A DNA stretch of 64,000 nucleotides, taken from a candidate division WOR-1 bacterium RIFOXYB2_FULL_45_9. GTDB taxonomy: Bacteria > Margulisbacteria > WOR-1 > O2-12-FULL-45-9 > XYB2-FULL-48-7. The notes under the pieces are model-generated. The model did no database searches. It was not told where the DNA came from and was given only the letters and a program-made list of their open reading frames with translations. Location of the stretch: assembly GCA_001771575.1 (NCBI GenBank), contig MEUD01000001.1, positions 415,277 to 479,276 of the forward strand, in the 5' to 3' direction. The position numbers and the translations under genes are program-made. Of the stretch, positions 21,144 through 30,913 are shown piece after piece (position 1 is the stretch's first letter; each line of letters opens with the position of its first letter).

Positions 21144-21216
21144 TCCCCGGTAGCGCAGTGGTAGCGCAGGTGACTGTTAATCACTTGGTCGTAGGTTCGA
21201 ATCCTACCCGGGGAGC
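21144..21216 (+). tRNA. tRNA-Asn (anticodon GTT)
   Basis: Manual cloverleaf: acceptor TCCCCGG/CCGGGGA, D-stem GCGC/GCGC, anticodon stem GGTGA/TCACT with loop CTGTTAA, T-arm GTAGG-TTCGAAT-CCTAC and discriminator G. Confidence 0.8.
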
Positions 21217-21248: not shown

Positions 21249-21541
21249 CAATTGCGTTCAGCAATTGGATTTTGCGAACCCCGGCGCTTGACGACGGGTG
21301 AGCAAAATCAAGGGTAGGATGAGAAAGGCGTTTTTGCGCCGAGCGAAGCGAGGATCAGCGAGCGACACTCCTGCCCTAGCAGGATGAGCGAGCGAAAGCA
21401 AAAACGCCATGTCCCGTAGTCGCCGCCCAAAGCGGCACGGAGGACGAAATCCTACCAGGGGAGGGCCGATTTTTTTTGATTATCTTCGAGAGTGTAAAAC
21501 TAGGCGCTACTCCCTGCCTGCAGGCAGGTTAGTATTACGGA

Positions 21542-21691
21542 CTATTTTCTAATTGCAAGTGGTCCAGTTTTTGGGGGGAAGGTCACCACAATATCGATAA
21601 TTTCCCAATAGATCCCCTGTTTAACCACAAATCCGCTCGCAACGAGCAAGGAAAGGCCGATGAGGAGCCAACCCTGGAGTTTATCGTGCAT
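21542..21691 (-). CDS. tiny single-TM peptide (49 aa) at the 3' end of the defence operon
   Basis: MHDKLQGWLLIGLSLLVASGFVVKQGIY... has one hydrophobic helix. An AAAGGA Shine-Dalgarno (SD) sequence lies 8 nt upstream, and the start is 2 nt after the stop of the upstream gene. Calling such a short ORF is uncertain. Confidence 0.25.
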   Translation of the reverse strand: MHDKLQGWLLIGLSLLVASGFVVKQGIYWEIIDIVVTFPPKTGPLAIRK

Positions 21692-21693
21692 AT

Positions 21694-22671
21694 TTAATCC
21701 TTTAATCTCTTTTTTGACACGGCACAAGCATCTTTTAATGATTTACAAGTGAATAAAGTATCCAACATGCACTTTAATCTCCCATTTGACCATATTTTGC
21801 CAATTGGCAATTCCTTTCTTGGCTCAAATGGTTCTCCCAAATATAATAAATAGTGATTTTTAACTTTACCTCTTTTTATCTCTGGGATTCGGCTATGCAT
21901 ATCAGCAACAATCTCATAAGATTTCACATAATGGATCGACTGCAATTTACCATCATATCTAAAACCCATATAATTGAGAGGTATTTTGGGCCAATTCTTT
22001 TCTGCTGGATAAAAGTAGAGGCGTTTTTTATTAATAACATCTCTCCAGGATATTTTTGACCATTTTGGTGTTTTATTCGATAGTGATACAACATAGACCC
22101 AATTAGATTCCTTGTTTTCCATTTGGACCTCCTCAAGCAAATATTTTTGCAGCTCTGATAAAAGATACTTTTCCTTATTTGATGCCTCATGGTAAATATA
22201 ATTAATTGTTTTAATCACATCATGCCAAGAAATTGACTTTATAGGAACCCCGCGAATTGATCGTTTTAAATTACCATTAAAATATTCTTCCGTGCAATCA
22301 CTGAGAACCAGAAACATTCTCTTGGTTCTCTTATAGCCGCCAAACCTCTCCCTGTATTTTTTGAGTTGGTCCAGGGTTGGCAAAGACCACCCCTTTTTTG
22401 CTTCTATGATACAAAAGAACCTATTATCAACAACAATTTCAATGTCCGTTATCCCCTTTTCCCCATGTTTTTGAAGACGAATAACAATATTATTGTATTT
22501 CATATCTCTGTTATACATTCGCTTGATTAAGGCTTTCACCAATCTTGGGACCCTTGCCATTGTATATCCCAAACTGTATGTTAAATCATTTTCACTAACG
22601 CCTAAAAGTTCAAATACGCTTTCAATTTGATCATCATTAATAGATATTACTGTTGATGGAGTTTTATTCAT
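21694..22671 (-). CDS. PD-(D/E)xK-like putative nuclease with an uncharacterised C-terminal domain, translationally coupled to hsdR
   Basis: 325 aa. The N-terminal segment GITDIEIVVDN...CIIEAKKGW fits the restriction-endonuclease-fold D...D/E-x-K motif. A 4-nt overlap with the hsdR stop and AT-rich codon usage link it to the island. Confidence 0.45.
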   Translation of the reverse strand: MNKTPSTVISINDDQIESVFELLGVSENDLTYSLGYTMARVPRLVKALIKRMYNRDMKYNNIVIRLQKHGEKGITDIEIVVDNRFFCIIEAKKGWSLPTLDQLKKYRERFGGYKRTKRMFLVLSDCTEEYFNGNLKRSIRGVPIKSISWHDVIKTINYIYHEASNKEKYLLSELQKYLLEEVQMENKESNWVYVVSLSNKTPKWSKISWRDVINKKRLYFYPAEKNWPKIPLNYMGFRYDGKLQSIHYVKSYEIVADMHSRIPEIKRGKVKNHYLLYLGEPFEPRKELPIGKIWSNGRLKCMLDTLFTCKSLKDACAVSKKRLKD

Positions 22672-25600
22672 GAGGCATACACGCTCTTTTCTGGGCCAGA
22701 ATACGCATCATAAACATGCTCATAAACTAACTCGCACTTCTGACTATAAACTGGCTTTGTGTATTTCTCGGGCAAATGGTCAAATACTTCATTTATCATG
22801 ACTTTGACCGCGGCCCTTGCCTCTTGTTTCTTGCGCCAATCGAGCACGAGCTTCTCTTGCTTTAGCTTTTCCAGCAGCTCTTTGGCCACTGCCTTGACTA
22901 CCCCCTCTTCTTTCTTGGTCAACTGCATGTCTGGCCTAGTTAAAATATCAAATACTGCTAATTCTTCTTCGGAAAGCCCTTCTGCGATAGTCCTCTTTTC
23001 TTCTTCGTTTAGCTGCTGGGCAAATTCGGTTAAACGTCTAAAGAATTCGTCAACGTTCATACTGCCGGCGTTATATTCATCGATCAATTTCTGAAACTTA
23101 TCCTGGAAGTCCAATCTGGTCCGGTTAAACCTGATCATTGTTCCTAAACGACGCTCAATCATCCCTTTCAGTTTTTCAACTTCAATATGCTTTCTCCCCT
23201 TTTCAAATTTGGCGCGTAAAGTCTCGAAGTCGATCTGGCTAAGATCGTAGATTCGGCTTTGCTCGGGCTTTTCGGCAATTACATAGCCTTCCGTGGAAAT
23301 CGATTCATCAAGAAGCTTATCGATCTCTTTCATCACTGCTGAAATGTCAGGCGGCGGCAATAACGATCGTATTTTGTTAGCGATAACTACGAATAATATC
23401 GCTAGTGGCGCTACCTCATGGGCAATTTTGTCCGGTAAGATAGCTTTGAATAAGCCATTAATCCGGGCAGCCATAACTAGGTAGGTTTTCTTCTGCTCTT
23501 CGGCTGCGATTATCATGTCCACCGCGTTATCAAGCAAGCCAACCTTAGCGAATCCTTCTGCGGCTAGGATTGCTTCAACATTAATCCCAAGATTCGAGCA
23601 GAATTCCGTTGTTTCTTGCAGTTGTTTCTTGAGAATCTCCACCAGCTCCGCCTTTTCGACAATTGGCGGCTCACCCGCTCCAGGGGTCGGCGCGTAGATC
23701 GCCAAAGCCTTTTGCAGGCTTTGGAAAACACCGACATAATCAACAATTAAACCGCTGACCTTGTCCTTAAAGACCCGGTTAGCCCGGGCGATAGTCTGCA
23801 TTAAAGTATGGTTGCGCATCGGCTTATCAAGATAGATGGTTGAACAGCTCGGCACATCGAAGCCGGTCATCCACATGGCACAGACAAAGACGATCCGGAA
23901 GGGATCGTTTGGATCCTTGAATTTTGTGGCTAAGTCTTCACTTACTATCCGGCGACGGTGCGGCTCGATCTCGACCCCCTTCTCCCGCATCTGGGCGATC
24001 TCATTTTGCGAAGAAGAGACCACTACAGCCATATCTGTCTCTTTAACATAGTTGATTAATTTTTCTAATGCGGCCCTCTCCTCTTCCGCAACCCCGCTCA
24101 ACTGCTTTTCCAACTCCTGCAAATATTCTTGCTGATATTTACGCACCTTATCGTACATTTTGACTGCCGTAACCTTATCAATCGCCACAACCATAGCCTT
24201 CCCTTTAAAGCCGCGGTTAAAGAAATGGCTTACTATATCTTTAGCAACTGTTTCCAGGCGATCGTTACGAGTAATAATGTGATATTGTCTGGCGAACTCT
24301 TGCTCCAACCGGGCTTGCTGGCGCTCATCCAGCTCAGCCGCTTCAACAATAGCGGCCATCTCATCATTTAAGCTTTCGTTTGTGAGCTGGACCTCGGGGA
24401 TTCGGTTCTCGTAATAGAGTGGCACGGTTGCCTTATCATCGATCGATTGCTTAAAGTTATAAACACTGACATATTCACCAAACACATCCTTGGTCTTCTC
24501 TTCTCCAACGATTAAAGGTGTACCGGTAAAAGCGATAAAAGAGGCATTAGGCAACGCTTGGCGCATGTTAAAGGCGAGCGTGTCATACTGGCTCCGGTGC
24601 GCCTCGTCCGTGATAACGATAATATCCGACCGCTCTGACACAACCCCCTGGAAGTTGAACTTATGGATCAGAGTAAAGATATAACGATGATTCTGACCCA
24701 ATAACTGCCGGAGATGGTCACCTGATTCGGCATGGATCTCTTGAGCAGTTATGGCGCCTGAATTGGCAAAGTTACCATAGATTTGCTCATCAAGCTCTTT
24801 GCGGTCAGTCACAATAACAAAGGTCCAATTGCCAGGGATCTTACGCAGGACTTTTTGGGCGAAAAAGATCATGGAAACGCTCTTGCCGCTCCCTTGAGTA
24901 TGCCAAAACACCCCCAGCTTGCCCTGTTTTTCCCTAATATCCTTAAATCCCTTAATAACGTTGTTGACGCCCAGATATTGATGGTTTTTTCCGATTAATT
25001 TAATTAGTCCGCCGCGAGATTGCATATAAGCGATATAGTTCTCAACGATATCAAGGAAGTTAGCCTTCTGACAGATCCCGCGGATCATCGTATCGAGGGA
25101 TATAACGCCTTGTTCGCCTTCACTATTGATCTTCTTCCAATCGGCAAAATGCTCCCACTCCGCAGTTATACTGCCAACTTTACTTTCGCTCCCATTGGAA
25201 AGGATAATAACGGCGTTATACCAGAATAGCTGGGGAATCGTGTTTTTATAATCGGTCAGGTTATCAATAAACGCGTTTTCTACCCGCTTATGTGCCGCTT
25301 TAAGTTCAATAAATAGTAAAGGGATACCATTTACAAACCCGACCAGATCAGCCCTTTTGGTATACATTTCACCGGTGACCCAGAATTGGGAAGCAAGGAA
25401 AAAGTCATTATTTTCGGACTTATCCCAATCGATAACTTTAACCGTTTCGGTCGTCTCTTCCTCTCGGCCTGTGGCGGGCATTGTAACGGGGACGCCATCC
25501 TTGAGCAGTTGGTAAACTTCCCGGTTGGCATTAACCAAGCTCATCGCACTCCGATCGCGCGTTATTTCTTCAATGGCCAGATCAATTGCTTCTTCAGTCA

Positions 25601-25796
25601 ATCCGGGGTTTAACTTATTCAAGGCGGGTCGTAGCCTTGAAACAAGAACAACTTCTCCCCGATTCTCCCGGCCCATAGTACTGCCGCTCGCCCGTTCGAA
25701 TTCTAGATAACAGTTAGCAGCTTGCCAGTTAAGATCTGTTAACAACCTGATTGTTGGTTGTTCAATTAATCTATCTTCCGAATAATGCGTTGTCAT
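22668..25796 (-). CDS. hsdR: type I restriction enzyme R subunit (helicase/endonuclease)
   Basis: 1042 aa with an HsdR N-terminus, Walker A (TQGSGKS), DEAH box (VITDEAHRSQ) and SF2 helicase C-terminal motifs. Confidence 0.9.
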   Translation of the reverse strand: MTTHYSEDRLIEQPTIRLLTDLNWQAANCYLEFERASGSTMGRENRGEVVLVSRLRPALNKLNPGLTEEAIDLAIEEITRDRSAMSLVNANREVYQLLKDGVPVTMPATGREEETTETVKVIDWDKSENNDFFLASQFWVTGEMYTKRADLVGFVNGIPLLFIELKAAHKRVENAFIDNLTDYKNTIPQLFWYNAVIILSNGSESKVGSITAEWEHFADWKKINSEGEQGVISLDTMIRGICQKANFLDIVENYIAYMQSRGGLIKLIGKNHQYLGVNNVIKGFKDIREKQGKLGVFWHTQGSGKSVSMIFFAQKVLRKIPGNWTFVIVTDRKELDEQIYGNFANSGAITAQEIHAESGDHLRQLLGQNHRYIFTLIHKFNFQGVVSERSDIIVITDEAHRSQYDTLAFNMRQALPNASFIAFTGTPLIVGEEKTKDVFGEYVSVYNFKQSIDDKATVPLYYENRIPEVQLTNESLNDEMAAIVEAAELDERQQARLEQEFARQYHIITRNDRLETVAKDIVSHFFNRGFKGKAMVVAIDKVTAVKMYDKVRKYQQEYLQELEKQLSGVAEEERAALEKLINYVKETDMAVVVSSSQNEIAQMREKGVEIEPHRRRIVSEDLATKFKDPNDPFRIVFVCAMWMTGFDVPSCSTIYLDKPMRNHTLMQTIARANRVFKDKVSGLIVDYVGVFQSLQKALAIYAPTPGAGEPPIVEKAELVEILKKQLQETTEFCSNLGINVEAILAAEGFAKVGLLDNAVDMIIAAEEQKKTYLVMAARINGLFKAILPDKIAHEVAPLAILFVVIANKIRSLLPPPDISAVMKEIDKLLDESISTEGYVIAEKPEQSRIYDLSQIDFETLRAKFEKGRKHIEVEKLKGMIERRLGTMIRFNRTRLDFQDKFQKLIDEYNAGSMNVDEFFRRLTEFAQQLNEEEKRTIAEGLSEEELAVFDILTRPDMQLTKKEEGVVKAVAKELLEKLKQEKLVLDWRKKQEARAAVKVMINEVFDHLPEKYTKPVYSQKCELVYEHVYDAYSGPEKSVYAS

Positions 25797-27112
25797 AATT
25801 GATTTACCATGTCATAGGAGGCTACAACATCCTTAATCTTATCTTCGCTGATTTTCTTTTCTCTTGCAAGCCTCATAACCCTCAAATGATACTGATTAAA
25901 TAATATTTTCTTCGATAATCTATTTAACCTGGCGATATATCTCACCCTTTGTCTTTTGTTTAACAAATCAAATATCTTGCCAAGATAATAACCACCTGCA
26001 TTCATTATGAATTTTTCATCAAGCACATTTGCAATTACCTTAGTTCGATATTTTGGGGCGAGCCCTGCGATATTGCAATTTATCATTCTTTTTAATATTG
26101 GGCTTCGTTTAAAGTCGACTCTTTTCCTAACTTTTTTCCTATACGCATCGTATGCCTTCTCAATGTCTTTGTGCTTTTTAGGGTTTTCCAATAGCTTAAA
26201 TATATCAAACGACCAATAATCGAAGAATTGCCTAGAAGTAAATAATTTTGCCTTACTAGCGTTAAGATTCAATCCTATCATTGCCAGCTTTTTTGATGCC
26301 AGAAACATGATCTCTTTTGCATCTTTTTCATTTTTTGATGCTATTATTTGATCGTCAGCATATCTTAGATACTTAGATTTCCTTTCTTCGCATATATCGT
26401 ACATATACTTGTCATATTCCTGAAGATAATAATTTGCTAATATTCTAGAACAATCCCCAACCTCATCTTGTGGTAATCCCGCACTCTGCTTCTCATAAAA
26501 CATATACTTTTTATTCCAATGCGATAAGAAATAAAATAGCAAATTAACATATTTAGTTTTCCGCTTGTCTACGGCTTCCCTTATTAATGCTTCCAATCTG
26601 TCCAGGCGTATTGAATCATAGAAGTTTGCAATATCAAATATAAAATAGTATTCATGATCTGATTTTGCATAGAGATTGTAAGCTCTCTTTTGATAATCAG
26701 TCCATGCACGTTTCCATGCAAATGAGTTGTAACTGTAATCTGGCATAGACACAATTTCGTCGTTATTTTCAATCTTCCGTATTTTTCCGCCTAATTTCCA
26801 GCCCCCATAGGTGCCCTTTACTCTATTTGCAGCTATTTCATCCTCAAGACTCTTAATACAATAATAGTAGACACAGTAGTCCTCTCTAGTAAGAGCGGGA
26901 ATAAAACGAACAACTAAATTCTCTTTATGTGATACAACAAATGTCCTGGGGGGAGATGGGGCATAAATCATTTTGTTAATCTTACCGACTAATTCCTTCA
27001 AGAATGAAATTCTATCGGGCGTCGAATCAGCGAATGGGCAATCGGTTTTATTGTGAATGTGCTTCCAGAATCTTTGCCCAACCACTTCGATAAAGTCGTT
27101 ATCTTTTAGCAT
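25793..27112 (-). CDS. reverse transcriptase (defence-associated, Abi/UG-like, non-retron context) embedded between hsdS and hsdR
   Basis: 439 aa with RT motif A (YYFIFDIANFYDSI), motif B (GLPQDEVGDCSRILANYYL), motif C (LRYADDQII) and a motif D/E region (IGLNLNASKAKLF). A basic helical C-terminal extension of about 140 aa follows. ATGA overlap with hsdR and a 20-nt gap to hsdS are consistent with translational coupling. Confidence 0.75.
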   Translation of the reverse strand: MLKDNDFIEVVGQRFWKHIHNKTDCPFADSTPDRISFLKELVGKINKMIYAPSPPRTFVVSHKENLVVRFIPALTREDYCVYYYCIKSLEDEIAANRVKGTYGGWKLGGKIRKIENNDEIVSMPDYSYNSFAWKRAWTDYQKRAYNLYAKSDHEYYFIFDIANFYDSIRLDRLEALIREAVDKRKTKYVNLLFYFLSHWNKKYMFYEKQSAGLPQDEVGDCSRILANYYLQEYDKYMYDICEERKSKYLRYADDQIIASKNEKDAKEIMFLASKKLAMIGLNLNASKAKLFTSRQFFDYWSFDIFKLLENPKKHKDIEKAYDAYRKKVRKRVDFKRSPILKRMINCNIAGLAPKYRTKVIANVLDEKFIMNAGGYYLGKIFDLLNKRQRVRYIARLNRLSKKILFNQYHLRVMRLAREKKISEDKIKDVVASYDMVNQL

Positions 27113-27132: not shown

Positions 27133-28296
27133 TTAACGATCATATATCTCTCTCCCTACCTCCCCGCCAATCAACTTCGGTAAAAGTAAATCGCGGGTTT
27201 GAACCAGAATTTTGTTCATGTTGACCAGGTTAGCCATCATTTGAAATGATATTGAAATCTTACCCTCAAAGTCATCTAATATTTCTCCAGGAATATCAAC
27301 GACTTCTAATCGCATTAGATCCTTTGGATAAACATGTGGTTGCGCCGCTCCTCTTTGAAAGTTGGTTACCTCATTTTGTCTATTTTTCAGCAACAAATAG
27401 AAATAATATAAGTATTTTGTGGTATTTCTATCAATAAAAGAGCAATCTGATGCCCAGATATCCTCATAATATATGTTTACATAGCCCGAGTTCGCTCCCG
27501 AAGCGCTAATCGTTATGACAGGAGCCTTTGTATTTGCCTTATTATGAAAATATGCCGGGCTTAACCCTCCAGCCACCACAGGAACTGCTCCCTCAATTAT
27601 TATCTCCCTGGTTATACTCTTGCCCTTTGCAATATCCACCTTTTCTCCTAATGTAATTACCTCCCACTTCTCCGGTATCTTCCCCAGCTTCGAATCAACC
27701 ATGTTCACCTTCTCATGCCCCGGAAAGCGGAAATTGACAAACCATTCGCTATAGATCATCTGCGCCATTTGTTCGATGATCTTTATCCGGCGGTTGTTGT
27801 TTTCGATCAGGTCGTCGTAGGCGGAAAGGATGGAGGCTATGCGGCGTTGTGTTGGGAGATCGGGGAAATTGATAACTAGGTCCTTAATTGATGCGATATC
27901 CGCACGTTGCCTACCAGATGCGCCAGCCATACTCTTTTCAGCGGGGCTTCTTATGGTTTTCGTAGTTGATAAATAATAAATATAATCTGGGTCAGAAATC
28001 GCTGATTTTGCTCTAAATACAAAGAATTCTGTCGAACCAAAAGCGGGGCTCCCTCTATATTGTGCAATTTTTCCATTCTCAAGACATGGTGTTATTCGGG
28101 CAAATAATGTGTCCCTGTCCTCAAATTTTGACCCGCCGCCTTTTAACTGTTTCTCTCCACTTGGGCTAACATACTTTGTTCCGGGTTGAATAGCCTCCAT
28201 CATAACAAATGGGTATTCCCCACCACGTTCCAGCTTTACTTTTGGATGAATTTCAACGCAATCCTCAAATCTTACTTTTCGCCAATTATTCTTCAT
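27133..28296 (-). CDS. hsdS: type I restriction-modification specificity subunit
   Basis: 387 aa with two target-recognition domains separated by a central conserved helix. It overlaps the upstream gene by 4 nt. Confidence 0.8.
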   Translation of the reverse strand: MKNNWRKVRFEDCVEIHPKVKLERGGEYPFVMMEAIQPGTKYVSPSGEKQLKGGGSKFEDRDTLFARITPCLENGKIAQYRGSPAFGSTEFFVFRAKSAISDPDYIYYLSTTKTIRSPAEKSMAGASGRQRADIASIKDLVINFPDLPTQRRIASILSAYDDLIENNNRRIKIIEQMAQMIYSEWFVNFRFPGHEKVNMVDSKLGKIPEKWEVITLGEKVDIAKGKSITREIIIEGAVPVVAGGLSPAYFHNKANTKAPVITISASGANSGYVNIYYEDIWASDCSFIDRNTTKYLYYFYLLLKNRQNEVTNFQRGAAQPHVYPKDLMRLEVVDIPGEILDDFEGKISISFQMMANLVNMNKILVQTRDLLLPKLIGGEVGREIYDR

Positions 28297-29315
28297 GGCC
28301 TTTGCTTAATATAATTATTAATCACTTCGTATACAGCGTTTGTATCTTTTCCTTCCAATCTTCCAATGTACCCTATTGGCATATGCTTAAACATTGCCTC
28401 TGTACCCTCCTTGATCATTTCAGATTTCGCTTCTGGCTCTGGATTAGTTGCAATATAATCCTGAAGGGTTTGCGCCACATTCCTTCTATGTGTGTTAATG
28501 GCATACATATTTGCATAAACGTTGTAATTTTTGGAAGCAAAACCCAGCCCATATGATACAACGGAAAGTAATGCCAACTTTGCTAATCCATATTCTAGAG
28601 TGAAAAAAGATTCTGGGCCAAAAACGATTATTCCAATACTTTTCATCATAAGAATACCAAAATACACGATAAAGTTAAAAGCGATGAGCCCTATTAAGAA
28701 CCAGAATGTTTTATCTCTATTGCCCAACCATTTCTCCATGCTCGCACGGTCTTCATTTGCCTGCTTTTCAAAATATTTGGCGAGAGTCACAGAGGCAATC
28801 TCGCCATGAGTAGTTTCGATTTCAGCCTTTTTTTGCTTCAAATTCTCTAGCTCATTTTGTAATTTTAGGGCTAATTCCTTGTAAACTATTTCCGCCTGCA
28901 CCGCCGCTTTTTGTTGTTTTTGCAGCTCTTCTTCATCCTTACTTTTTAATGCTGCTTCCTGTCTTAAATATACAAGGTTCGTTTTGGTTTGCTGAATCGT
29001 TTCGTTAGAATAACGCTCTATCTCTCCTTCCAACTGATCATGCAAAGGCTTGGGATTGGGATGGTTTAAATTAAAGCTATCGATTCTTTTTATATAATCA
29101 ACAAATCGTGTTTTTTTATTATCTATATCATCAATTTCGGGCTTCGATAAGATTGTTTTATACTGGAGTTCAGCAAATTCCCCAAATAAGCCCTGTAATC
29201 TAATCAAATATTCGGCGCTTTTTTGAAATTTTAATGCGCCATAATCATCCTTCATGGTTATCTTATTTATATCTATTTTACCTATTGAATCAATATCTAT
29301 ATTTTGTTCAGCCAT
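28293..29315 (-). CDS. coiled-coil protein with a C-terminal 2-TM hairpin, inserted between hsdM and hsdS (candidate abortive-infection/effector module)
   Basis: 340 aa. The N-terminal roughly 200 aa are strongly heptad/charged (QKQQKAAVQAEIVYKELALKLQNELENLKQKKAEIE). Two hydrophobic helices follow (FWFLIGLIAFNFIVYFGILMM and LAKLALLSVVSYGLGFA). A strong SD (GGGAGGG) precedes the start. Confidence 0.5.
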   Translation of the reverse strand: MAEQNIDIDSIGKIDINKITMKDDYGALKFQKSAEYLIRLQGLFGEFAELQYKTILSKPEIDDIDNKKTRFVDYIKRIDSFNLNHPNPKPLHDQLEGEIERYSNETIQQTKTNLVYLRQEAALKSKDEEELQKQQKAAVQAEIVYKELALKLQNELENLKQKKAEIETTHGEIASVTLAKYFEKQANEDRASMEKWLGNRDKTFWFLIGLIAFNFIVYFGILMMKSIGIIVFGPESFFTLEYGLAKLALLSVVSYGLGFASKNYNVYANMYAINTHRRNVAQTLQDYIATNPEPEAKSEMIKEGTEAMFKHMPIGYIGRLEGKDTNAVYEVINNYIKQRP

Positions 29316-29350: not shown

Positions 29351-30853
29351 TTATAATCCCTTTTTTAATATAAGGCCGATATTATGCGATATTTTCTTTT
29401 CCAGTAGGTGCGATTCAGCATTTAGTTTTTCGAGCTCACCATTCAATCCTATGATTTTTTCCTTGAAGTCGTATTCTTCAGTCGGCCTTTCGGCGACTCC
29501 AACATATCTCCCCGGATTTAAGCTCCACCCCTGCTCTTCGATCTCCTTTAAGGTTGCCACCTTACAAAGGCCCGGCTTATCCTTTAACTTCCCTTGCCGG
29601 TATTGTTTGACCAGCCCGGCCAACATTTCAATCTGTTCCGGCTTAAAATCACGCAAAGCCCGGTTTATCTGATTAAAGGTGTTTCGGGCATCGATAAACA
29701 AGACTTTATTCTTAAGCGCCTTATCCTTCTCCTTATCAAAGAACCAGAGAGTCACTGGGAGTGTGACAGTATAAAAGAAATTAGACCCAACAGAGACGAT
29801 CACATCAACATGGCCCGATTTAATAAGCTGTTTGCGTATTTCCATTTCAGACGAACGGGCATCAGCCGCAGCATTCGACATAACAAAACCTGCCCGCCCC
29901 TTACTATTCAACGCACTGTAAAAGATCTGGATCCAGAGATAATTGGCATTATCTACGGTTGGTAGGCCAAACGGGAACCTTGGGTCGCCCTTAAGACTTT
30001 CAATGTCTACCCGATTAACATTAAAGGGAGGATTAGCCATCACATAATCGAACTTGCCGACACTTTTATGAATATCTTCTTTATAAGTGTTAGACTCACG
30101 GATATCACCTTCCAAGCCGTGAACCGCCAGATTCATTTTGCACAGCCTTACCGTCTCTTTGGTCTTTTCCTGCCCGTAAATGGATATTTCAGCGCTCGGC
30201 TTCTTCTTCCGCTCTTCGACAAAGCGTGCACTCTGGACAAACATACCGCCCGAGCCGCATGCTGGGTCTAAAATCTTGCCATGGAACGGCTCAATTATCT
30301 CAACGATTAGTTTAACAATAGATATTGGGGTATAGAACTCGCCCCCCTTCTGCCCTTCCGTCATCGCAAATTCACCCAAGAAATACTCATATATCCGGCC
30401 CAGCGTATCCCCATCATGCTCCATCGGGATTGAAGCCATTAATTTAATCAGCTCAATTAAGACCTTTTTATCAAGCTGGTTGTAGTTCCTGGGCAAAACG
30501 TCTTTTAAAGATGGGTTTTCTTCCTCGATCGCCTTCATCGCGGCATTGATAGCCTTGCCTATATCGCTACCTTCCTTTAGTTTTGACAAATAGTCAAACC
30601 TGGCAATTTCCGGCAAATACATTACCCCTTGCGCTTGATAATCTGCCTTGCCAATTGTGCGCCGGCCGGTCCCTTTGCTCGCTAGCTCTTTCTCGACAAT
30701 AGTAAATTTATGGTCAGCGTATCTCAAAAAGATAAGACCCAAGACAGGCGTGGAATATTCAGATGATTTCAGGTGCGAGTTAGCGCGCAGTTCGTCGGCA
30801 GCATTCCAGAGTCCTTTTTCAAGATCGGCTAGATTGTTTTCAGGTTCAGGCAT
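29351..30853 (-). CDS. hsdM: type I restriction-modification DNA methyltransferase subunit
   Basis: About 500 aa N6-adenine methyltransferase with NPPF (VMANPPFNV) and a SAM-binding motif. The start is assigned to the second Met (MPEPENN), which is preceded by AAGGAGG. The ORF-track start at 30883 lies in the promoter palindrome. Confidence 0.9.
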
Positions 30854-30865
30854 TTTGGGCCTCCT

Positions 30866-30913
30866 TATTCTAATTACAGGCATTTAATTAGAATATAGAT
30901 ATTTATATTCTAA
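30866..30913. promoter_or_regulatory. candidate operator/promoter upstream of hsdM: perfect 10-bp inverted repeat TTAGAATATA-N6-TATATTCTAA plus a third half-site
   Basis: Read directly from the sequence at 30888-30913. An additional TATTCTAAT half-site sits at 30866-30874, just upstream of the SD. Confidence 0.4.

Follow-up and report, generated by a model that had tools for sequence, protein, structure and literature searches.

In E. coli K-12, modification-dependent restriction is linked to a Type I system in the immigration control region hsdRMS-mrr-mcrBC, with Mrr encoded next to hsdR. Known modification-dependent enzymes include the SRA-PD-(D/E)XK proteins MspJI and AspBHI, the PD-(D/E)XK-SRA proteins PvuRts1I and AbaSI, the EVE-HNH proteins VcaM4I and TspA15I, and CMoRE, in which a GIY-YIG domain is combined with a sensor (PMC6765204, PMC12923530). 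Enzymes that unite a nuclease with a PUA-superfamily domain rarely adjoin methyltransferases, and this scarcity has been argued to reflect dependence on modification (PMC6765204). Here, we analyze a 325-residue open reading frame (ORF) at the end of a Type I restriction-modification (R-M) operon of a candidate division WOR-1 bacterium (RIFOXYB2_FULL_45_9, GenBank assembly GCA_001771575.1). It lies within a stretch of 64,000 nucleotides of contig MEUD01000001.1 (positions 415,277 to 479,276), which we call the window and to whose numbering all coordinates below refer. The gene occupies 21694–22671 on the minus strand, starts with ATG, and encodes a protein that appears to have a PD-(D/E)xK nuclease at its N-terminus and, after it, a PUA-like domain of the ASCH/EVE type. 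Since a nuclease is joined here to a domain with the shape of a modified-base reader, the protein probably serves as an additional restriction enzyme, directed against phages with modified DNA. With moderate confidence, we read it as an autonomous Type IV-like single-chain endonuclease whose substrate would be DNA with a modification different from the N6-methyladenine (m6A) of the host Type I system. By analogy, modified cytosines would be the most likely target.

Two domains in one chain

The assignment of the N-terminal domain (residues 1–181; 22129–22671, minus strand) as a PD-(D/E)xK nuclease is secure, as judged from residue conservation and the predicted fold. An initial interpretation of the DNA, which we call the sequence-only reading, had recognized the catalytic pattern of such nucleases in the segment DIEIVVDN...CIIEAKKGW, and this proposal held up, as did the other sequence-level statements of that reading except the length given for the C-terminal part. 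With residue numbers, the segment reads TD76IEIVVDN...IIE90AK92KGW, which places the motif D76...E90-A-K92 at 22396–22446 on the minus strand (codons GAC 22446–22444, GAA 22404–22402, and AAA 22398–22396). All 209 full-length homologs, at 31–100% identity (median 42%), retain D76, E90, and K92 without exception. Conservation also marks E27 (22593–22591, minus strand; present in 202 of the 203 members without a gap there) and Q67 (22473–22471, minus strand; kept in 204/209) as further putative active-site residues.

In the AlphaFold2 model of the full-length protein (mean predicted local distance difference test score, pLDDT, 86.6), the elements of the N-terminal domain follow one another as helix, three strands, helix, and a last strand, as is canonical for this fold. 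The strands span residues 62–68, 74–81, and 85–91, and are followed by helices at 100–113 and a strand at 117–123; the domain ends in a long linker helix (residues 165–181). D76 stands at the start of strand 74–81, and E90-x-K92 lies where strand 85–91 ends. A Foldseek search of the Protein Data Bank (PDB) with this model matched NucS (2vld, probability 0.97) and EndoMS (5gke, 0.92), followed by Cap4, Can2, and LlaBIII as well as MspJI (4f0p) and AspBHI (4oc8), both of which are modification-dependent; template modeling (TM) scores were about 0.2. The sequence-only reading had also named two contrary findings, absence of the restriction-endonuclease fold and lack of conservation of the catalytic residues. 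Both were looked for: the model and its structural matches contain the fold, and the conservation is complete. In Pfam, PDDEXK_4 matches the protein at E 0.024 and 15 bits, against a cut-off of 22.3; the same family appears below threshold in 12 of 35 members (best E 0.0017), with NucS_C, HSDR_N, AHJR-like, and RE_EcoO109I among the others.

The remainder of the protein had been described as about 200 residues without a recognizable motif. By sequence, this part indeed belongs to no family: searches with residues 188–325 (21697–22110, minus strand) against Pfam, NCBIfam, PADLOC, PHROGs, and PDB sequences, the last with both the single sequence and a profile, gave no assignment, and the profile returned only noise from the PDB sequences. 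The Pfam models for ASCH, EVE, YTH, SRA, and DUF3427 had no match in 35 members at E values up to 1. The length had been overestimated, since the boundary between the domains lies near residue 185 and leaves about 140 residues unassigned.

Because the two-domain shape diluted the full-length Foldseek search, the C-terminal domain was remodeled alone, and the domain-only run was coherent. The resulting AlphaFold2 model (29 homologs as alignment, pLDDT 89.4, predicted TM score 0.81) has the element order strand-helix-strand-strand-strand-strand-strand-helix-helix, in agreement with what has been published on the PUA/ASCH core (PMC7641849). In the PDB, ASCH, EVE, and YTH domains account for the best hits and for almost every one of the first 50. 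They include the Zymomonas ASCH protein (5guq, probability 0.99), TTHA0113 (2dp9), and TRIP4 for ASCH, THYN1 bound to 5-methylcytosine DNA for EVE (5j3e, probability 0.90), and many YTH readers of m6A, at E values near 1e-2 and TM scores near 0.4. A second, independent collection, the viral models of BFVD, led to the same fold, with matches to ASCH/DUF3850 proteins (best E 2.5e-4, probability 1.00, TM 0.52–0.55). On the strength of this modeling, the C-terminal domain very probably adopts a PUA-like fold, that is, a beta-barrel of the ASCH/EVE/YTH type predicted to sense nucleic acid or a modified base. If this assignment is right, a nuclease and a modification-sensing domain would be fused in one chain. 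Of the earlier suggestion that the protein is Mrr-like or Type IV-like, the second half is strengthened by the barrel, a form that the sensor of modified bases commonly takes in Type IV enzymes. The first half was dropped: neither Mrr_cat nor Mrr_N matched the query or 35 homologs at E values up to 1, and the nuclease comes first in the domain order.

A separate match in BFVD is A0A8S5N646, a phage protein of 320 residues that bears a PD-(D/E)XK nuclease annotation and aligns with the model of the C-terminal domain over 128 columns (probability 0.89). From this structural comparison, it may be a distant phage analog with the same two-domain layout.

Residues S189, N190, Y219, F220, W227, N233, Y234, F237, R238, Q244, H247, R298, and D304 of the C-terminal domain are invariant or nearly so. 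Judged by this conservation, Y219, F220, W227, Y234, F237, R238, H247, and D304 are no more than candidates for the lining of a base pocket. We infer that the protein binds modified bases, takes DNA as its substrate, and acts in defense. In the mechanism that we propose, the barrel would bind DNA and take up a flipped base that carries a modification. This base would most likely be a modified cytosine or a different hypermodified base of phages, rather than the m6A introduced by the linked HsdMS. The nuclease domain would then cut nearby with the help of Mg2+ and without hydrolysis of nucleoside triphosphates (NTPs), probably as a dimer or tetramer. Within a Type I operon, such an enzyme would deal with invaders that evade Type I restriction through the modification of their DNA, in line with the logic of the E. 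coli K-12 region and of TgvAB in V. cholerae.

Several observations weigh against this reading. The PUA-like call comes from predicted structure alone, with Foldseek E values of about 1e-2 (PDB) and 2.5e-4 (BFVD) and TM scores of 0.4–0.55, and sequence profiles detect no ASCH, EVE, or YTH domain in this part of the protein. The nuclease domain itself scores below the Pfam gathering threshold (15 bits vs 22.3). Moreover, ASCH domains are functionally mixed and not all of them read modified bases. The top match of the C-terminal domain, Zymomonas ASCH, is a protein that we take to be a ribonuclease; TRIP4-ASCH is deposited in complex with double-stranded DNA oligonucleotides for which no modification is listed; and some ASCH proteins are N4-acetylcytidine (ac4C) amidohydrolases. 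The invariant polar residues N190, N233, R238, Q244, H247, and D304 exceed what a simple binding pocket needs, and a second activity may be present. Finally, the 150 best profile matches of the C-terminal domain show only the same nuclease domain as partner, so that the domain shuffling typical of sensor modules is not seen among them. These 150 matches, of 664 clusters, have the same architecture or are fragments, and weaker, more informative matches lie outside them. One match of 779 residues, in which an integrase is joined to the whole protein, is probably a gene-call fusion.

Because ASCH domains are functionally mixed and so many polar residues of the barrel are invariant, we retain as an unlikely alternative an abortive-infection or toxin-type nuclease, in which the ASCH-like domain, instead of reading modified bases in duplex DNA of the invader, would sense RNA or a free (modified) nucleotide liberated by infection and trigger non-specific cleavage of DNA or RNA. 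Such a protein would agree with the dominance of ASCH proteins among the top structural matches, some ASCH proteins being RNA-directed, and the many invariant polar residues would suit a small-ligand site. A PUA-containing defense module triggered by free m6-dAMP is reported in a preprint (10.64898/2026.01.15.699771), and PrrC provides a precedent for an embedded nuclease that backs up a Type I system. However, the PD-(D/E)xK matches are mostly DNA nucleases, the clustered and scanned neighbors of the family include no conserved adjacent antitoxin or regulator gene, and the known DNA-directed modification-dependent enzymes match the architecture equally well or better.

Still less likely is a variant in which the ASCH-like domain reads a class of modification without a known restriction enzyme (N4-acylated or hypermodified), or in which a free modified nucleotide switches on the nuclease. 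Embedding in m6A-type (Type I/IIG) operons would then amount to a functional hand-off between systems. N190, N233, R238, Q244, H247, and D304 leave room for a ligand-gated or catalytic second site in the barrel.

Distribution and genomic context of the family

The gene is real, far beyond chance, given its homologs: a word-indexed search found 278 of them, with 76–100% query coverage (mostly >94%) and all named ones called "hypothetical", and a profile search with the C-terminal domain in 1.84 billion representatives gave 664 clusters at 50% identity, almost all of which, among those listed, have the layout of about 325 residues. GenBank models of the gene (OGC11283.1 and others, from candidate division WOR-1 bacteria) start at M38 and contain 288 residues, leaving out 22561–22671 (minus strand). 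This deposited form is too short and the 325-residue form is correct, because the region of residues 20–33 upstream of M38 is conserved family-wide (F20, G24, E27, and N28) and because the longer form creates an ATGA junction with hsdR. The whole protein has no above-threshold model in Pfam, NCBIfam, PADLOC v2, or PHROGs (best PHROGs E 0.19), and neither its sequence nor its profile retrieved anything from the PDB sequences. The published list of embedded candidate systems (Payne et al.) contains no such architecture.

The family was found in 295 of 185,579 species-representative genomes. Its distribution is patchy and extends over bacteria and archaea, with members in Micrarchaeota, Bathyarchaeia, Chloroflexota, Bacillota, Acidobacteriota, Planctomycetota, Omnitrophota, Patescibacteria, and others; copies occur beside integrases and on plasmids (8 plasmid records), and a tblastn search of 50,697 phage records returned none. 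This rarity, the patchy phyletic spread, the absence from phage records, and the repeated embedding in R-M operons argue against a non-defense nuclease that serves repair, recombination, or mobile-element maintenance and merely travels with mobile DNA. This explanation is improbable in our view, even though the best matches of the N-terminal domain include the mismatch/repair nucleases NucS and EndoMS, and several loci contain genes for integrases, a resolvase, ImmA-like peptidases, or Y-family polymerases. The domain order is also the reverse of that which we take NucS to have.

Type I or Type IIG genes lie within the fetched flanks of 19 of 84 non-redundant loci and are absent from those of the other 65. 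Among close relatives (at least 48% identity), 7 of 9 loci, and in addition the window itself, have the gene inside or beside Type I/IIG R-M genes. Among more distant members, such genes are near in 12 of 75 loci and absent within the flanks in 63, and the plasmid copies are solitary. Since close relatives occupy varied positions relative to R-M genes and distant ones are mostly solitary, we consider the gene an embedded autonomous defense gene rather than one for an HsdR subunit.

The positions themselves illustrate this variation. The gene directly follows hsdR only in the window and in loci L001-3, L008, and L085; elsewhere its position differs (L092-L095). In P0002, a relative with 75% identity, the overlap with hsdR is 8 nt; in P0003, a gap of 16 nt separates hsdR from the gene that follows it. 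In a 57%-identical relative (P0005; L092, 6001–6984), the gene is located between hsdS and hsdR and overlaps both, by 4 nt and 11 nt, so that the same cassette is found at different Type I operon junctions across lineages. Other copies follow an M-S fusion protein (P0010), are separated by two genes from a Type IIG enzyme encoded upstream (P0011), stand directly upstream of or near a Type IIG enzyme (P0027 and P0056), or precede hsdR with RadC between (P0004). The coupling to hsdR emphasized by the sequence-only reading is thus a local feature and not a property of the family, whose members are found at varied positions or alone.

These data also bear on the idea that the protein assists the Type I enzyme as a subunit or effector in physical contact with HsdR. 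It would then add a nuclease layer that the Type I complex recruits or controls, and translational coupling of the two genes would set the stoichiometry. The ATGA overlap in the window, the 8-nt overlap in the closest relative, the double overlap in L092, and the R-M setting of 7 of the 9 close relatives could all be explained in this way. Yet the position relative to the hsd genes varies, some copies stand beside Type IIG enzymes without HsdR, and 63 of 75 distant members as well as the plasmid copies do without any Type I/IIG gene in their surroundings. In addition, no fusion to HsdR occurs among the 150 best profile matches of the C-terminal domain, and the GC content of the gene is unlike that of hsdR. 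We regard a role as HsdR accessory as quite improbable.

Clustering of the flanking ORFs of 85 loci revealed no conserved partner gene. The largest neighbor clusters are HsdR (10 loci) and proteins of about 300–400 residues (10 loci) that are taken to be tyrosine recombinases; Phage_integrase genes were called in L004. The 150 immediate neighbors fall into 114 Pfam families, with only 2 N6_N4_Mtase DNA methylases and 3 HsdR proteins, and neither set of neighbors contains a consistently adjacent cognate methyltransferase. Genes for SIR2, TIR, HNH, LmuA, or Type IV proteins lie near the family in other loci. The RT_UG13b reverse transcriptase, the TM340 membrane protein, and the 49-residue peptide encoded around the gene in the window (see below) were searched for in the fetched related loci and, because they are absent from these, are not partners of the family.

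Two further observations concern the neighbors. The PADLOC model "mad2" matches 7 of the 150 immediate neighbors (best E 5.2e-47). Ten recurrent downstream neighbors were scanned and none of these is responsible; the matches are suspected to be generic methyltransferase-like proteins. In three Acidobacteriota loci (L006, 8980–9657; L021, 8977–9654; L045, from 8923), a conserved protein of about 226 residues is encoded 2–5 nt past the stop codon of the homolog. Two copies scanned with PADLOC gave no match, and the protein may be a lineage-specific partner.

If the protein is indeed an autonomous modification-dependent endonuclease, it would represent an uncatalogued family of small single-chain restriction enzymes with about 660 clusters at 50% identity. 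This family would be spread over many bacterial phyla as well as DPANN and Bathyarchaeia archaea, and would be missed by current defense-system finders. Modification-dependent enzymes are of practical use in the mapping of DNA modifications, and they explain cover against phages that escape Type I systems by modifying their DNA.

The host operon and adjacent features

The gene closes a single compact operon that runs on the minus strand from 30883 down to 21694. In order of transcription, this operon contains hsdM (29351–30883), a 340-residue membrane protein (TM340, 28293–29315), hsdS (27133–28296), the 439-residue reverse transcriptase RT_UG13b (25793–27112; PADLOC E 2.6e-149, YADD motif), hsdR (22668–25796, 1042 residues, with Pfam HSDR_N, SWI2_SNF2, T1R_D3-like, and T1RH-like_C), and the gene for the two-domain protein. 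The 4-nt overlap that had been noted between the last two was read directly as ATGA at 22668–22671 (minus strand), where the hsdR stop TGA shares letters with the ATG of the gene (GCC TCA TGA / ATG AAT), and makes translational coupling possible. The gene is co-oriented with the operon and starts on the hsdR stop, an arrangement that allows both co-transcription and coupled translation. The ATGA form recurs at the RT/hsdR and TM340/hsdS junctions.

The GC content of the gene is 0.337, and RT_UG13b and TM340 are close to this value (0.348 and 0.358, respectively). The hsd genes are richer in GC (hsdM 0.447, hsdS 0.418, hsdR 0.458), and the mean of the whole window is 0.508. The low GC content of the gene relative to the hsd genes suggests insertion of a cassette, and the mosaic in the operon suggests that foreign cassettes were inserted repeatedly at gene junctions that read ATGA. 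This pattern is the one expected for independent defense cassettes within a host R-M operon. With three low-GC cassettes in one hsdMSR operon and its ATGA junctions, the locus is a compact case of defense genes embedded in defense operons.

For UG13b reverse transcriptases, a role in defense has been predicted on genomic context only (Mestre et al. 2022). The position of the present UG13b gene, between hsdS and hsdR of a Type I operon, offers a clean setting in which to test this prediction. TM340, encoded between hsdM and hsdS and overlapping the hsdS start in the ATGA form, has a coiled-coil-like N-terminal part and hydrophobic helices at its C-terminal end. It belongs to a single-member cluster at 90% identity and gave nothing significant in Pfam, NCBIfam, PADLOC, or PHROGs; this protein may be a third embedded defense cassette or a membrane effector.

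Downstream, a 49-residue ORF with one hydrophobic stretch (21542–21691, minus strand) starts 2 nt past the TAA of the gene; the sequence AAAGGA precedes its ATG by 6 nt. As an ORF, it is present as the sequence-only reading had described it; as a gene it is doubtful, and we do not count it as part of the system. A two-component system of the nuclease and a single-pass membrane peptide would account for the tight spacing and the Shine-Dalgarno-like AAAGGA, and gene callers predicted the ORF in several assemblies of the same organism. But among 5.8 billion protein clusters the ORF matches only itself, no comparable ORF follows the family gene in any of 89 related loci (the 75%-identical relative included), and its GC content of 0.467 is flank-like, versus 0.337 for the preceding gene. 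The proposed small membrane partner, without homologs or a counterpart in other loci and of different composition, was therefore abandoned, and we rate such a pair as very improbable. A weak hairpin-plus-T site lies within the ORF (21633–21649), and just past it a perfect 16-nt palindrome, CCTGCCTGCAGGCAGG, occupies 21513–21528; on the operon strand, this palindrome lacks a T-run.

Farther on, a tRNA-Asn(GTT) gene (21144–21216, plus strand) converges on the end of the operon at a distance of about 330 nt, and beyond it lies a large-subunit rRNA gene that extends up to 18969 on the minus strand. A search for att-like direct repeats of this tRNA-Asn that would delimit an island, over distances up to 48 kb, found none.

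Comparison with known systems

Both the architecture of the protein and the pairing of Type I with Type IV restriction have precedents, and neither is a new principle. PvuRts1I and AbaSI are enzymes of about 300 residues that act without NTP and are not known to have a cognate methyltransferase. In these 5-hydroxymethylcytosine (5hmC)-dependent enzymes, one chain carries a PD-(D/E)xK-type nuclease at the N-terminus and a reader of modified bases at the C-terminus (PMC6765204), the same layout as predicted for the protein described here. They differ in that PDB sequence searches revealed no similarity to it, in that they fall outside the top 50 Foldseek matches, and in that their reader is an SRA domain, whereas the predicted reader here looks ASCH/EVE-like. 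MspJI, AspBHI, and LpnPI also join a PD-(D/E)xK nuclease to a modified-base reader, and MspJI (4f0p) and AspBHI (4oc8) were matched by the full-length model. However, these proteins are larger, have the opposite domain order and no sequence similarity, and align over the whole chain with TM scores of 0.2–0.26.

VcaM4I and TspA15I (EVE-HNH) as well as CMoRE/PD-T4-3 are likewise single-component defense proteins that combine a nuclease with a sensor of modified cytosine. CMoRE has its nuclease at the N-terminus and its sensor at the C-terminus, the same order as in our protein (PMC12923530), and a chain of this 5hmC-specific enzyme (9u75_D) is a weak Foldseek match to both the full-length and the C-terminal domain model (probability 0.57, TM 0.32). 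The nuclease folds are different, being HNH in VcaM4I and TspA15I and GIY-YIG in CMoRE.

As for the setting, linkage of a modification-dependent enzyme to a Type I locus protects against modified and unmodified DNA alike. TgvAB is such a system, embedded in the Type I cluster of V. cholerae VPI-2 and, like this family, present outside such clusters as well (PMC11411939). TgvAB is a two-protein relative of GmrSD, whereas here a single protein is encoded by a gene with an ATGA overlap with hsdR. Compared with Mrr, the family differs in matching neither Mrr_cat nor Mrr_N. Stand-alone EVE and ASCH proteins and ASCH-HsdS fusions (Bell, Wolf and Koonin 2020) resemble it as PUA-superfamily domains in Type I loci with a predicted role in recognizing modified DNA. 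Those domains are detectable by sequence and have no nuclease domain of their own; the present family carries a nuclease, and its PUA-like domain escapes sequence detection. The anticodon nucleases PrrC and RloC are also extra nucleases encoded inside hsd operons. Unlike PrrC, which is of the ABC-ATPase type and held latent by the Type I enzyme, our protein contains no ATPase and belongs to a family that is mostly independent of Type I systems. By sequence, the protein is a member of none of the families of nuclease-plus-reader Type IV/IIM enzymes; in architecture, as far as the predicted domains tell, it resembles them.

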